64,000 nt of DNA from an uncultured Methanosarcinales archaeon (GTDB lineage Archaea; Nanobdellota; Nanobdellia; Woesearchaeales; UBA12501): NCBI GenBank assembly GCA_964343705.1, contig CAYFJX010000001.1, forward strand, positions 6,100-70,099. The letters are read 5' to 3'. Positions 12,561 through 17,803 of the stretch are shown here, piece after piece. The notes below the pieces were generated by a model that was not told the origin of the DNA, ran no database searches, and saw only the letters and a program-made list of their open reading frames with translations. The position numbers were made by a program, and so were the translations under genes. Each line of letters starts with the position of its first letter. Within the stretch, counting starts at the first letter, position 1.

Positions 12561-13331
12561 TCAAAACAATTTCCTAAATTTTTTCAGTAATGATCCAGAA
12601 CGTCCAGCAACATGTCGTACTGCGCGCTGTCTCCGAACCCTCCCTAAAGCTCGCTTCAGCTCACCATCAACTGCATGAAAGTTTTCAAACTGTTCCTCAG
12701 CACGCCGAAACTTGGCATCATGGTAACAGTTCCTGCCATTCTTACTGCGATACTTGTGCACCTTGTGTAACATCTCATGATACATCACCACATCAAGCAA
12801 TGCCGGATTTTCATGGATAAGATCTTGAAACACCTTACTAATGCTAATCTGGTCAAGTTTAAAATCATAACACCCTAGCTTAGTGGTCGAGTACCTCCCC
12901 CACTCAAGATTTGGTTTATCAACCATCCCAAGAAAGTAGCGTTCATTAACCCGTGCAAAAGATGCTTCAAGCAGAGGGTCACCTTGCTTTTTTTCAACTG
13001 TTAAATGCAAGTTGCGTAAGAAGTTGTTGTACAAGTCAAGGTAAAGATGATCAATTTCCCCTCGCTGACTTTTTGTTCGCTTCCACATTTTTAAGTACAG
13101 ATCTTGCAGCAAGCCCATTTTGATTTCTGGACTTACTCGCTTCCATTTCTTACACAGATTAGCCTGCAACCTATTGCCTTGCATCACTATGTTGGCATTG
13201 TATGCAGAAAATCGTCCTGAATATGTTAGTTTGGCATTGTAAGAAAAATCTCTTCCTGGAAAAAGATGGTTAAATGCCTGCTCCATAATTTCCCTATCAA
13301 TGTCTGCTTGTGGTCGTCTGAATCTAAACAC
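12561..13331 (-). CDS. SprT-like zinc metallopeptidase domain protein
   Basis: HExxH motif (VVMYHEMLHKVHKY) with a downstream C/H cluster. 256 aa. Confidence 0.6.
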   Translation of the reverse strand: MFRFRRPQADIDREIMEQAFNHLFPGRDFSYNAKLTYSGRFSAYNANIVMQGNRLQANLCKKWKRVSPEIKMGLLQDLYLKMWKRTKSQRGEIDHLYLDLYNNFLRNLHLTVEKKQGDPLLEASFARVNERYFLGMVDKPNLEWGRYSTTKLGCYDFKLDQISISKVFQDLIHENPALLDVVMYHEMLHKVHKYRSKNGRNCYHDAKFRRAEEQFENFHAVDGELKRALGRVRRQRAVRHVAGRSGSLLKKFRKLF

Positions 13332-13358: not shown

Positions 13359-15977
13359 TCAATAATTTGTGTCAAACCTAAGAATCGCTGCAACTCTTCC
13401 AATGTCACGAAGCTGCACACCTTCTCGTGTTTCAGTGGAAATAATCTTAACTTTAGTACCTAATTCGCGTGCCTTTTCTTCAAACTGTTCAAGAAGGTTA
13501 TCTGCCAACTCTTCAGAAAGCAATAAAGTATCAACAACACCAGTTTCTAGATGTTTAAGACAGTCAGCTTGACCATAACTTACCATTCCTGGCTTGGTTG
13601 AAAGTAATGTAAAAAATTTAGTCATTACCTGTTTTTCCTCTGCAATCTCTTCTTTAGCAAGGACATCTTGGCTCTTGTCAACAAGTTCTTGCAATCCAAA
13701 TTCTTCAGTGTAACTAAGATCTTTCACTGCAATTATTTTCTTCTTAACTTGATCAGTAATGAAGTTTCCCTCAACAAATGAGTACTTTGTAGGGCCAGGA
13801 CCACCGACAAGAATGCCTTTTAGGTCTTTCATCATCATAAACTGTTCTTTCATATAGTTCCCGACTTTTTTGTAGTGATCCTTTGCAGCACCTTCACGCA
13901 ATCGGGCAAAACGTTGAGCTGAGTTGTGTACAATAACACCATTTGCTATGAAGTTTTGGTTCCCAACAGAAATATCAACCATTTCAACTTCTTTTTCTTC
14001 AATTTCAATTTTACTTATTTTGACAGGGAGGAAAGGGTGATTATGTATTTTCTCAAGCTTTTCATGTAAGTCTTTGTCTGTTATATTACATAGAATGGAA
14101 TTGTTGAATGCCTCCTTGCTCATCATACGCTCATTTCTAAAAAAACTGTTAACTTTAGGAAACAATTCCAGATTATACCCTGAGTTTTCTATAATTTTCC
14201 GGATTTCTGTACCAGGAATGAGTATTTGCCTCACATTACTTTTTACTGATTTTCCATCAATAATTTGATTTAATCTTGCATTCTTAATTTCACTTGTTAA
14301 CCCGATATTTTTTCTAAAAAGTTCTAAAGATTCCTTTTCAGTGATGTCAATGGTAAAGCGTGGATTATCACTGTAAGGGTTTCTTCTGTTATCATATTCA
14401 TGCAAAGATGAGATTATGCTAAATCTAAGCAATGCCATTTGTACCTGTTGGGCAAGAATCTTGTTACTAATCCCCAATGCAACTTGTTTTCGGGTAGAAA
14501 CATAGCCTTCAGCGTCAAAGATTCCTTTAAGAAATGAAGCTAGTATTTCGTCAGGAGAGTTTAGTATTTTCTTTGGAATCTCAGAGTCATGAGTCTTTTT
14601 TATTTCTGGAAACTCGCTTATAATCATCCTGACTAAAGGTCTGCTTGTGAACCTCAATTGATGGTAATTTTTAGATTCTCTGAACCTATAAGATGAGATC
14701 ATATGTAAATAATTATCAAATATTTCCTTATATTTCAAAGCAACCTGTTTATTTTGTTCAAAAAAAGTAATTCGATCCTTCTCAATACAACCATCACCAA
14801 GCAAATACCCTAAGAACTGTGCTAGTTTATGGTCAACAACTACAGGGAGTTTCATACTGGCATGCAAATCAGGTGTAGTATACTTTCTCAAAAAATCATA
14901 AAAATCTATTTCTAAAGCAGCACACACTTTCTGAAGAGGAATCCGTCTAGCACTCATTTTACCTATTTCATACGAAGAAATAGTTGTTTGAGTAATACCC
15001 AGTTGCTTAGCTAATTGCTTTTGGAAAAGGCCTTTCTCCATCCTTTTCTGCTTAAGTAAAGCCTGCCCCTGTTCATTAATAGAGAAGGCGTTGTAGTATT
15101 GAATAGAATTAATTGTTTGAATAGAGCTCTTGACTGTAATCTTTTCTGGCATTATAAGATACTCTCCTTCTTTCAACTGCTCAGCTGGTTTTTCTTCAAT
15201 GCCATTCTCACCACGAACAAAAAAGACATGATCTTTGGACGCTTGAATTTCAAATCGAGGTGATTTTGTGGTGATCTTGTAAATATGAGACTTCTTTACA
15301 TCCCATCGATCAGTGACAGGTGAATCCGCAAGTGAAAAATTTTCCATAACCATTGTCTTAAGGACACAAGGGTTATGAGAAAATTTGAGCTGAAGGATTC
15401 CACCATCACAAGATTGGATTAGAGTATCCTTGACAAGACACTGACCACCAGCACGAAACTTTCCTGGAACTTCAGAATGAGTTTTTAGCAATGGCACAAT
15501 TGTTTTTCCTTTAAGCAATGCAAGATGTGCATCTCGCCTGTCCATAACAACAAGGCCAAACACTTCTGAAGCCTCACACATTTGAGCAAGGGGTTCAAGA
15601 AGAAACTCCTTGTCACATCGGTAAATACGCGTGTTTAATTCAACAGGAGGTTCAATACTCCACACACGCAAATCAGACTTACCTTCCTTTGAAGCAATGT
15701 TACCTGAGAAAACAGCAAGACCATTAGGTGGTGTTTTCTTGAACAAACGCAAGTGTTGAATCATTCGCTCAAGAGCATCAGTGACATTTTTTCGTGTACT
15801 TGCAGATTTAATGTTGGATGCAGTTCCTTGCTCTTGAGAAAGATGTTGTATAATTTTTATAAGGTCATATCCCTTAGGAATGTATACACTAACAAACTCT
15901 GTATGCCGACCTCGATGCGGCTTTAATTCCTTCATAAACTTTTTGAGTTTAAACTTAGTTGCTTGTTCCATTACCAT
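13359..15977 (-). CDS. prf1: Peptide chain release factor aRF1 interrupted by a 506-aa intein
   Basis: aRF1 N-terminus (RGRHTEFVSVYIPKGY, GTASNIKS, NIKS-like). GGQ motif is followed immediately by Cys, and the frame resumes as SAQRFARLREG after an HN dipeptide. Confidence 0.9.
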   Translation of the reverse strand: MVMEQATKFKLKKFMKELKPHRGRHTEFVSVYIPKGYDLIKIIQHLSQEQGTASNIKSASTRKNVTDALERMIQHLRLFKKTPPNGLAVFSGNIASKEGKSDLRVWSIEPPVELNTRIYRCDKEFLLEPLAQMCEASEVFGLVVMDRRDAHLALLKGKTIVPLLKTHSEVPGKFRAGGQCLVKDTLIQSCDGGILQLKFSHNPCVLKTMVMENFSLADSPVTDRWDVKKSHIYKITTKSPRFEIQASKDHVFFVRGENGIEEKPAEQLKEGEYLIMPEKITVKSSIQTINSIQYYNAFSINEQGQALLKQKRMEKGLFQKQLAKQLGITQTTISSYEIGKMSARRIPLQKVCAALEIDFYDFLRKYTTPDLHASMKLPVVVDHKLAQFLGYLLGDGCIEKDRITFFEQNKQVALKYKEIFDNYLHMISSYRFRESKNYHQLRFTSRPLVRMIISEFPEIKKTHDSEIPKKILNSPDEILASFLKGIFDAEGYVSTRKQVALGISNKILAQQVQMALLRFSIISSLHEYDNRRNPYSDNPRFTIDITEKESLELFRKNIGLTSEIKNARLNQIIDGKSVKSNVRQILIPGTEIRKIIENSGYNLELFPKVNSFFRNERMMSKEAFNNSILCNITDKDLHEKLEKIHNHPFLPVKISKIEIEEKEVEMVDISVGNQNFIANGVIVHNSAQRFARLREGAAKDHYKKVGNYMKEQFMMMKDLKGILVGGPGPTKYSFVEGNFITDQVKKKIIAVKDLSYTEEFGLQELVDKSQDVLAKEEIAEEKQVMTKFFTLLSTKPGMVSYGQADCLKHLETGVVDTLLLSEELADNLLEQFEEKARELGTKVKIISTETREGVQLRDIGRVAAILRFDTNY
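13923..15440 (-). mobile_element. Intein with LAGLIDADG homing endonuclease and an HTH (XRE-like) insert, at the aRF1 GGQ site
   Basis: Starts with Cys right after GGQ and ends VIVHN before the +1 Ser. Two LAGLIDADG blocks (LAQFLGYLLGDGCI, ILASFLKGIFDAEGYV). HTH-like LAKQLGITQTTISSYEIGK. Confidence 0.8.
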
Positions 15978-16795: not shown

Positions 16796-17803
16796 ATGAC
16801 CACAATGAAAGACCTCATTGCACAAATGAGAAAAAACGCAAAAGCTACACGAAGAAAGGTTATTGTAGCTGAAGGCTGGGATGAACGATGCTTAAGAGCG
16901 TCAGCCAATATTCTCAAAGATGATGTGTGTGATCTTATTCTGCTAGGTGATCCAGAAAAAATCAATGCAGAAGCAGAAAAGTTAGGTGTTGACATTAGTA
17001 AAGCAGAGATTATCAACCCTCCAGAATATGAAAAACGAGCAGAACTGGTGAAAGAGTTGGTAGAACTGCGGAAACATAAAGGACTTACAGAAAAAGAAGC
17101 AGACAAACTCTTAGAAGATGTTAACTATTTTGGGTGTATGCTTTTACACAGGGGTGTTGCTGATGGCATGGCTGGATCTGCAATTTGCCCTACAGCTGAA
17201 CTTATGCGACCAACACTCCAAATTATCAAAACTAAAAAAGGAGCAAGCCTTGTTTCAGAAGTAGTAATCGCAGAGGATGTTAAAAATAAGCGTGTTCTTT
17301 TCTTTACTGACTGCAGTCTTAATCCTGACCCAAGTGCAGAAGATTTAGCTCAAATTGCTGTGAATGGTGGAGACTGTGCTAAAGCATTTGGCTTTGAACC
17401 AAAAATAGCCTTCCTCTCATACTCCACAAAGGGAAGCGGTGGCACTAGTGAAATTATTGAAAGAACAAGAGAAGCTGTTGAACTAGCACGAAAAAAACAG
17501 CCAGACTATGTGTTTGAAGGTGAAATGCAAGGGGATGCTGCTCTTAATCCATTTGGTGCAAAACGAAAATGCCCCGATGCGCAGATTAAAGGCGATGCAA
17601 ATGTTCTTGTGTTCCCTAACTTGACTGCTGCAAATATTTTCTGCCATCTTATGATGCAACTTTGTGACATGGGCATTGGATTAAGTGCTGGAGTTGGATT
17701 AAGAAAACCTGTGGCTGTTCTTGGAAGAAGTAATAGTGCAGAAAGTATAGAAAATCTTATTATTAGCTGTGCAATGAAGGCTAATGCTAGTGATAAAAAG
17801 TAG
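16796..17803 (+). CDS. pta: Phosphate acetyltransferase
   Basis: Close colinear resemblance to archaeal Pta (ELRKHKG, SAICPTAELMRP, LSYSTKGSG, VFPNLTAANI). 335 aa. Confidence 0.88.
   Translation: MTTMKDLIAQMRKNAKATRRKVIVAEGWDERCLRASANILKDDVCDLILLGDPEKINAEAEKLGVDISKAEIINPPEYEKRAELVKELVELRKHKGLTEKEADKLLEDVNYFGCMLLHRGVADGMAGSAICPTAELMRPTLQIIKTKKGASLVSEVVIAEDVKNKRVLFFTDCSLNPDPSAEDLAQIAVNGGDCAKAFGFEPKIAFLSYSTKGSGGTSEIIERTREAVELARKKQPDYVFEGEMQGDAALNPFGAKRKCPDAQIKGDANVLVFPNLTAANIFCHLMMQLCDMGIGLSAGVGLRKPVAVLGRSNSAESIENLIISCAMKANASDKK

Follow-up and report, generated by a model that had tools for sequence, protein, structure and literature searches.

The analysed window, a 64,000-nucleotide stretch of an archaeal contig, carries on its minus strand a gene for the release factor aRF1 (13359..15977) that encodes an 872-aa precursor followed by a stop codon and comprises an N-extein, an intein and a C-extein; all features described here lie on this strand. 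The N-extein (15441..15977, residues 1-179) contains aRF1 domain 1, with the NIKS and YxCxxxF motifs, and the start of domain 2; it matches Pfam eRF1_1 with 62.8 bits and ends in the GGQ codons (15441-15449). The C-extein (13359..13922, residues 686-872 and the stop codon) holds the remainder of domain 2 and then domain 3, and its first residue, Ser+1 (13920-13922), lies within the universal GGQ-S-A-x-R-F sequence. Across the insert the precursor reads ...KFRAGGQ/CLVKDT...GVIVHN/SAQRFARLREG, where slashes mark the junctions. The motifs TASNIKS, YRCDKEF and AGGQ can be read directly in the exteins and identify the protein as an aRF1. The TIGR03676 score rises from 389 to 418 bits once the insert is removed (cut-off 234.7), and after in-silico splicing Pfam eRF1_2 gives a single unbroken match (positions 2-132 of 133); the extein halves are therefore one continuous aRF1, as had been proposed. 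Several independent profiles match the gene and its insert with E values from 1e-10 to 1e-125, so that the pattern did not arise by chance. Archaea are not known to have any class-I release factor besides aRF1, and the intein resides in the only functional centre of its domain 2.

The insert itself (13923..15440) is 506 aa long, from Cys1 (codon 15438-15440) to His505-Asn506 (terminal Asn codon 13923-13925), and its limits agree to the base with those given in the original prediction. The N-terminal part of the Hint domain (intein residues 1-105, 15126..15440) starts with Cys1 in block A and includes block B, S68-K-D-H71 (15228-15239), while the C-terminal part (residues 469-506, 13923..14036) contains block F, VEMVDISV with D489, and block G, which ends in NGVIVHN. 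All splicing residues are in place, and intein profiles, which had been suggested as a check, give 65.3 bits for Pfam Intein_splicing on the insert (cut-off 35.8) and 17.7 bits for TIGR01443 intein_Cterm on the C-terminal part (cut-off 15.6). Cys1, the nucleophile of class 1 inteins, is found without exception in 92 close homologs, in 60 species representatives and in 10 divergent ones. Block B follows the T/S-x-x-H pattern in the homologs, with an invariant H71 and either S or T at position 68, and D489, H505 and N506 are invariant as well. Ser+1, the native serine of GGQ-S, is found in at least 90% of homologs. The insert adopts a Hint fold, and its MSA-based AlphaFold model (pLDDT 93.7) matches the solved endonuclease inteins TliVMA, PI-TkoII, PI-PfuI and PI-SceI. 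We conclude that the insert is a complete class-1 intein placed exactly after GGQ, the position claimed for it, and that it is predicted to splice.

Between the two Hint parts lie three further domains. The homing endonuclease domain (intein residues 203-380, 14301..14834) has a tandem alpha-beta-beta-alpha-beta-beta-alpha fold and matches LAGLIDADG_3 with 71.4 bits in two stretches, which bears out the two LAGLIDADG blocks seen earlier. The first motif, LAQFLGYLLGDGC (14787-14825), ends in ...LLGD216G and the second, LASFLKGIFDAEGY (14502-14543), in ...FDAE311G, where D216 and E311 are the catalytic acidic residues. Conservation of the endonuclease (0.64) is close to that of the N-extein (0.65). 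Between the endonuclease and the C-terminal Hint part is a helical accessory domain (residues 381-468, 14037..14300; AF2 helices 384-466). The third domain, likewise noticed at the outset, is an XRE/Cro-C1 helix-turn-helix (HTH) in the linker between the N-terminal Hint part and the endonuclease (residues 122-188, 14877..15077). Pfam HTH_3 matches it with 40.8 bits (cut-off 23) over residues 129-182, spanning LAKQLGITQTTISSYEIGK; it has the five-helix lambda-repressor-like fold, and this part of the AlphaFold model matches the 434 and P22 repressors and C.BclI.

A search of orthologs for an empty site, also proposed as a check, found it. All of the closest 120 extein relatives (68-76% identity, 364-399 aa) are intein-less. 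Among them, a 76%-identical ortholog (P0270, locus L005) reads GGQ/SAARF at the uninterrupted site, ...AAAGCGGGGGGACAG/AGCGCTGCCCGTTTC..., and has in common with the query the gene order aRF1, SprT-like, a 63-65-aa ORF, aIF5A and M50 peptidase. Within the family of allelic inteins, the best 120 matches all read GGQ/C. Among the best 80 loci from GTDB species representatives, 64 are aRF1 genes interrupted at the GGQ site, from six DPANN lineages. GGQ/C is present in 58 of the 60 complete loci of these representatives, and 59 of the 60 retain C1, H71, D216, E311, D489, H505 and N506; the same seven residues are retained in representatives at only 28-45% identity. Overall, the allelic intein occupies the GGQ site in hundreds of aRF1 genes from Woese-, Nano-, Pace-, Aenigmat-, Iain- and Micrarchaeota. 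Some relatives carry an additional intein in the aRF1 stop-codon-recognition motif YxCxxxF. Elsewhere in the window we found neither further inteins of the aRF1-GGQ family nor an intact copy of the reconstituted 24-bp target, and the window gave no tRNA or Rfam matches.

On the host tree, occupied alleles are intermingled with empty ones, and an extein phylogeny of 226 taxa requires at least 29 presence/absence changes, compared with about 75 for random labels. The closest relatives of the query by extein are empty, whereas the closest by intein are housed in exteins that are more distant from it. Degenerate alleles also occur, including one without both acidic residues (L046) and a 271-aa remnant (P0172), so that the occupied, empty and degenerate states of a homing cycle are all represented. 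The intein tree broadly follows host lineages, and the congruence between distances of inteins and of exteins is only partial (Mantel r 0.48 and 0.56). The overall GC content of the intein is lower (0.344 versus 0.390), but this stems from codon positions 1 and 2, while GC3 equals that of the host (0.302 versus 0.305); a recent foreign origin was therefore rejected. Since GC3 is that of the host and the intein has diverged more or less in step with its host, inheritance may be largely vertical, with rare homing. The intein is a typical selfish element, widespread in DPANN archaea.

Based on these findings, we consider it likely that the aRF1 gene harbors an active homing intein in which the HTH serves as an accessory DNA-binding module for target recognition, a reading that draws on sequence conservation and structural models. 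The gene would be translated as the 872-aa precursor, which should be inactive because its GGQ loop is split. Through Cys1, S-x-x-H71, D489, His505-Asn506 and Ser+1, the Hint domain would then excise the 506-aa intein and ligate ...AGGQ to SAQRF..., yielding a normal aRF1 of 366 aa. The freed intein would act as a single-chain LAGLIDADG endonuclease that uses D216 and E311 to cleave aRF1 alleles lacking the intein where they encode GGQ, and repair of the break would copy the intein into them. The two domains next to the nuclease, the XRE-type HTH on its N-terminal side and the helical domain on its C-terminal side, would be additional modules that bind DNA and so extend or tune how the conserved sequence around the cut site is recognised.

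It could instead be that the intein still splices but its endonuclease has retired from homing, and that the element is kept since imprecise deletion destroys the GGQ loop and Hint needs the endonuclease scaffold, with the HTH being vestigial. Such a history would fit the host-like GC3, the correlated intein and extein distances and the intein tree, and mutualism between Hint and endonuclease has been discussed (PMC8966425). Structural dependence of Hint on the scaffold could indeed explain part of the residue conservation in the endonuclease. It would not, however, account for the acidic residues D216 and E311, which together with their surrounding motif are near-invariant across phylum-level divergence, something that scaffold selection alone does not require. 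The interleaving of occupied and empty alleles and the discordance between the nearest extein and intein relatives of the query also speak against retirement, as does the existence of truly degenerate alleles, which look different from the query. We therefore regard retirement as unlikely, though it deserves more weight than the explanations that follow.

The original prediction raised the possibility that the HTH gives the intein a second role in DNA binding or regulation. In such a case the precursor or the excised intein would control transcription, for example by repressing aRF1 itself or by acting on other genes, and the exaptation would resemble that of WhiA. The variation of the module argues against this. 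At the aRF1 site the HTH is cleanly missing from about one-third of the alleles, which are nested among HTH-bearing ones; it has been gained or lost repeatedly with the intein retained, and where it was lost the remaining intein is intact. Since, in addition, many close relatives lack the intein altogether, no host function depends on the HTH. The same layout, with an HTH in the linker, occurs in inteins at unrelated sites, namely those of FttA (at HxHxDH), a dCMP deaminase, a DHHA1 protein and others. Scaffold positions of the HTH are conserved in the aRF1-site family and at other host sites alike, but positions of the recognition helix are conserved in the former and variable in the latter: Q is found in 77/83 members of the aRF1-site family and S in 74/83, compared with 5/20 and 7/20, respectively, at other host sites, a contrast confounded by the greater diversity of the latter group. 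Taken by itself, this contrast would fit binding of a homing site and binding of a conserved operator alike. Conservation of the helix from Micrarchaeota to Woesearchaeota would suit a conserved target in coding DNA better than fast-evolving promoters. The element also does not resemble a WhiA-like domesticated regulator, as its nuclease residues are nearly invariant and it is missing from the closest relatives. Endonuclease inteins are known to carry accessory DNA-binding domains, some of which are HTH-like, and cases in which HTH-like domains alter cleavage behaviour are on record (PMC8966425). Given the kept catalytic residues, the repeated loss and gain of the module, its presence in unrelated hosts and this precedent, an accessory role in homing-site recognition appears to be the more economical reading, and we judge a regulatory role improbable.

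The equal conservation of intein and aRF1 and the persistence of the element across phylum-level divergence could also be taken to mean that the intein is more than a parasite, in that conditional splicing gates the DPANN release factor or the HTH of the excised intein is a transcription factor at an early, WhiA-like stage of exaptation; we give this broader proposal little credence. Its first half would make splicing of a co-opted intein responsive to redox state, temperature or another signal, which would thereby control how much active release factor is present and how efficiently translation terminates; on its own, this seems very improbable. In its favour, other inteins are known to splice conditionally, an insertion in the catalytic loop ensures that the precursor is inactive, Cys1 does not vary, and the intein is spread across DPANN and matches its host in conservation. 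Intein-less alleles are nevertheless common in the closest relatives, which means that the host does not need the intein, and selfish inteins normally lie in catalytic motifs. No sequence feature suited to such control, for instance a second Cys positioned for a disulfide trap, was identified. Finally, a non-splicing insertion in a pseudogene or an assembly chimera can practically be dismissed, as the frame is open over 872 codons, a protein of identical sequence (P0001) recurs on 8 independent metagenome contigs from several runs, hundreds of homologs keep all the splicing residues, and the interrupted gene encodes the only release factor of its class that is known in archaea.

An active homing intein of this kind does not constitute a new type of system, but it adds the GGQ loop of aRF1 to the list of intein homing sites and implies that in many DPANN archaea translation termination would depend on prior protein splicing. 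It had been supposed that the GGQ loop is not a commonly catalogued intein site. This holds for the literature, in which a search of mostly open sources found no paper describing an aRF1, eRF1 or GGQ intein; it does not hold for sequence data, since the allele is abundant in public DPANN genomes and metagenomes, where annotation pipelines already label such proteins 'eRF1/intein/homing endonuclease'. The paper on Bodo saltans virus mentions both eRF1 and inteins, though in separate genes. The locus further documents a recruitment, detectable from sequence, of a transcription-factor-type (XRE/Cro-C1) domain into an endonuclease intein, and accessory-domain acquisition of such a kind was hypothesised by Beyer et al. 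(PMC8966425). The alleles at this one site, some bearing the HTH and others lacking it, form a natural series for studying how accessory domains tune homing specificity, and the GGQ intein could serve as an engineered release-factor switch.

Among known systems, the TliVMA and PhoVMA inteins (PDB 7qss/7qsu/7qst; Beyer et al. 2022, PMC8966425) reside in the V-ATPase A subunit rather than in aRF1. In their structures the connection from Hint-N to the endonuclease is an unstructured loop of 28-32 residues (PMC8966425), whereas here it is a folded domain of ~65 aa that matches HTH_3. An HTH in this linker was not found in any of the matched solved intein structures. The helical domain, in turn, sits where the TliVMA, PI-TkoII and PI-PfuI inteins have their accessory domains (PMC8966425). 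PI-TkoII (PI-PkoII, 2cw7/2cw8) and PI-PfuI (1dq3) are hosted by DNA polymerase B and ribonucleotide reductase, respectively, and their extra domains are not XRE-type by sequence. In PI-SceI, the yeast VMA1 intein, the host is eukaryotic and the accessory region, which is not HTH_3, is inserted within Hint. The archaeal aIF2 (IF-2) intein of NCBIfam PRK14845 is likewise located in a translation factor, but in another protein and at another site. This family is the best intein-containing NCBIfam match of our insert (76.8 bits), and its alignment of 357 query residues to 235 model positions is consistent with a model that lacks the HTH module. WhiA (3hyi, 8dy9) is not an intein; according to the literature on it, it is a dedicated regulator with a C-terminal HTH and has lost the nuclease acidic residues, which are nearly invariant in the element described here. 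The HTH of the intein has in common with 434 cI, P22 c2, C.BclI and C.AhdI the five-helix fold and the signature Q..LA...G.[ST]Q..IS..E.G. XRE/Cro-C1 repressors and restriction-modification controllers, however, are free-standing proteins that are known to bind palindromic operators as dimers, whereas the intein embeds a single copy, from which we would expect, by analogy, at most a half-site-type contact.

The aRF1 precursor is encoded by a single ORF of 872 codons (13359..15977, minus strand), which translates as ...SEVPGKFRAGGQ/CLVKDTLIQS...NFIANGVIVHN/SAQRFARLREG... (slashes mark the insert junctions). The Cys codon lies at 15438-15440 and the terminal Asn codon at 13923-13925, so that 13923..15440 bounds precisely a 506-aa insert. 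The ORF reading and the Pfam and NCBIfam matches fully bear out the original prediction of an intein that splits aRF1 at GGQ. Comparison of the insert with intein profiles, which that prediction had called for, returned Intein_splicing (65.3 bits), LAGLIDADG_3 (71.4 bits, in two stretches) and HTH_3 (40.8 bits, E 2e-10, intein residues 129-182) from Pfam, and intein_Cterm from NCBIfam along with partial matches to the intein-containing aIF2, DnaB, GyrA, RNA polymerase A'' and Tes models. The extein halves form one aRF1, since in silico removal of the insert leaves a 366-aa protein that scores 418 bits against the aRF1 equivalog model (cut-off 234.7), up from 389, and in which eRF1_2 is a single unbroken match; the NIKS, YxCxxxF and GGQ motifs are each found. 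Both the host aRF1 and the XRE-type HTH are standard representatives of their kinds.

It should be noted that the spliced aRF1 is short, as ~40 aa of domain 3 are absent relative to the TIGR03676 model and to the aRF1 of Aenigmat-, Micr- and Iainarchaeota, a feature common to its Woese- and Nanoarchaeota relatives. Public gene calls place the start of an identical protein (P0001, 858 aa) 14 codons 3' of the ATG at 15977 (15936-15977); the 872-aa start is favoured by the homolog alignment (consensus MxxTxxQKxxLKKFIKELE) and by a TIGR03676 match beginning at residue 8. Downstream of aRF1 lies a SprT-like ORF with the zinc-metalloprotease motif HEMLH (12561-13331, minus strand), and upstream, on the opposite strand, a phosphate acetyltransferase gene (PTA_PTB, 16796-17803, plus strand).

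The AlphaFold2 model of the intein, built with a 92-sequence alignment, is confident (pLDDT 93.7, pTM 0.92). It opens with the Hint-N beta strands (intein aa 1-105), which hold Cys1 and block B S68-x-x-H71. A bundle of five helices (aa 122-188) comes next, then the LAGLIDADG domain (aa 203-380), whose two motifs are LLGD216G and FDAE311G, and a second helical domain at aa 381-468. The Hint-C strands (aa 469-506) close the chain and contain D489 and H505-N506. Its best Foldseek matches in the PDB are the TliVMA intein (E 4e-24), PI-PfuI, PI-TkoII, PhoVMA and PI-SceI, followed after the intein structures by free LAGLIDADG enzymes and WhiA. The intein is not of the WhiA type, given that it has kept its acidic residues and is missing from close relatives. 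In a sequence-only comparison, the HTH hits C.BclI (E 2.5e-6) and the 434 repressor (E 6e-3).

The intein belongs to a large allelic family. Searching with the intein alone recovered 471 proteins at E<=1e-5 in a 90%-clustered database, the best 120 of which are all aRF1 precursors or their fragments, most of ~870 aa, labelled Woesearchaeota or Nanoarchaeota and 53-72% identical across the intein. Each of the 120 has the GGQ/C junction; Pfam finds intein, LAGLIDADG and aRF1 domains in all of them, and HTH_3 in all but one. An exhaustive search against 50%-identity representatives gave 81 clusters at E<=1e-30, and segment HMMs reached aRF1 precursors occupied at the same site with <30% identity. 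Scanning one GTDB genome per species revealed at least 181 loci with a relative of the intein; aRF1 is interrupted at the GGQ site in 64 of the best 80, in Woese-, Nano-, Pace-, Aenigmat-, Iain- and Micrarchaeota (among the last, Ca. Fermentimicrarchaeum limneticum with its complete genome) and Asbonarchaeaceae. Both junctions are complete in 60 of these 64 and read GGQ/C in 58, the remaining two being GGW/C (L058, Woesearchaeota RIFCSPLOWO2_01_FULL_28_39) and GGM/C (L073, Aenigmatarchaeota JZ-2_201705_bins_275). In these two loci the catalytic Gln would be substituted in the spliced product, which could reflect an error in the sequencing, an inactive paralog or a genuine change. Some aRF1 genes, such as those of P0178 (1187 aa) and P0195 (1452 aa), carry a second intein besides that at GGQ, inserted as YLY[MR]/C...VHN/CDDH within the domain 1 stop-codon-recognition motif YxCxxxF, with the motif Cys as +1 nucleophile.

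One rival explanation is that the element is a relic that only splices and in which the HTH is vestigial. Residues C1, H71, D216, E311, D489, H505 and N506 are retained in 59 of the 60 complete loci and show no variation among ten representatives at 28-45% identity. Across 106 close homologs, mean pairwise identity is as high in the endonuclease (0.64) as in the N-extein (0.65) and somewhat lower in the HTH (0.51) and second accessory domain (0.55).

The HTH sits in the stretch joining Hint-N to the first LAGLIDADG helix and is modular. It is absent from about one-third of the aRF1-site alleles through a clean ~75-90-aa gap, and these alleles are dispersed among HTH-bearing ones, with approximately six changes on an intein tree computed without the HTH columns. 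Inteins of FttA/aCPSF1, dCMP deaminase, a DHHA1-domain protein and others share the order Hint-N, HTH_3, LAGLIDADG, Hint-C. In FttA/aCPSF1, a beta-CASP transcription termination factor, a related intein directly follows the metal-binding HxHxDH (SHAHLDH/C; L075, L085, L077, P0212, P0235), and that site likewise has both HTH-bearing and HTH-less alleles. A second rival is that the intein moonlights as a regulator. We set 83 HTHs of aRF1-site inteins against 20 found at other host sites: the scaffold is conserved in both (Q(-8) 79/83 versus 15/20, E 81/83 versus 17/20, G 74/83 versus 14/20), while conservation at the start of the recognition helix is limited to the aRF1 family (Q 77/83 versus 5/20, S 74/83 versus 7/20). 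This contrast fits a domain that reads insertion-site DNA, with the caveat that the other-site group is the more diverse one, which confounds the comparison. The intein's HTH region also matched P0243 (736 aa), which has nine tandem HTH_3-like repeats.

The empty site sought in orthologous aRF1 genes was found. The 120 best matches of the spliced extein are all intein-less aRF1 proteins of 364-399 aa at 68-76% identity, whereas intein-bearing exteins average 62% identity to the query. The best, P0270 (GCA_053532235.1), reads GGQ/SAARF uninterrupted, and its locus (L005) shares with the window the downstream order aRF1, SprT-like, a small ORF of 63-65 aa, aIF5A and M50 peptidase. When 106 occupied and 120 empty alleles are placed on a neighbour-joining tree of their exteins, at least 29 presence/absence changes are required, versus ~75 with shuffled labels. 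Distances between inteins correlate significantly, though only in part, with those between exteins (Mantel r 0.48, n=106; 0.56, n=60). The closest intein relative (72% identity) resides in a 62%-identical extein, and an extein 72% identical to the query holds an intein only 61% identical. Degenerate alleles occur at the GGQ site: L046 (Iainarchaeum CSSed10_239) has lost both LAGLIDADG acidic residues (D216V, E311K), and P0172 retains a 271-aa remnant with a truncated endonuclease. Recent arrival from a compositionally foreign donor is ruled out, because GC3 of the intein (0.302) matches the values for the extein (0.287) and for 35 long window ORFs (0.305 +/- 0.04). Taken as a whole, these findings appear to be the signature of a long-running homing cycle within DPANN, in which descent, as read from crude trees and best-hit-biased sampling, would be mostly vertical, broken by loss, decay and re-invasion.

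GGQ has an established role in aRF1, and we therefore infer that translation would yield an inactive precursor, its GGQ loop being split by 506 residues. Class-1 splicing would very likely follow via Cys1, the block B His, the block F Asp and His-Asn, with the native Ser of GGQ-S as +1 nucleophile. A third rival makes this step a conditional-splicing switch, and the last regards the gene as a pseudogene. The free intein would probably cut the GGQ-coding DNA of empty aRF1 alleles, with repair then copying it in, given the invariant D/E and the patchy distribution. On balance, we expect that the HTH and second helical domain add flanking DNA contacts.

No paper mentioning an aRF1, eRF1 or GGQ intein was found in the searchable literature, and none of the insert's NCBIfam matches is an 'intein-containing aRF1' model. 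Proteins with this intein are already present by the hundreds in public databases under automatic labels such as 'eRF1/intein/homing endonuclease' or 'transcriptional regulator with XRE-family HTH domain'. New relative to the literature found are the host site (aRF1 GGQ), the placement and identifiable XRE ancestry of the extra domain, and a natural set of HTH-bearing and HTH-less alleles at a single site.

Overall, the insert shows every computationally testable feature of a LAGLIDADG-endonuclease intein and is predicted to work like one. In VMA inteins, accessory domains, one of them HTH-like, change the choice of cleavage site, and Beyer et al. proposed that such domains were acquired from transcription factors (PMC8966425); the aRF1-intein HTH_3 offers a sequence-level example of that proposed acquisition. 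The solved VMA inteins have an unstructured loop of 28-32 residues between Hint-N and endonuclease and an accessory domain after the endonuclease (PMC8966425). Like them, the aRF1 intein has a helical domain after the endonuclease; unlike them, it carries an HTH in the Hint-N-to-endonuclease connection, and thus two accessory domains flank its nuclease.
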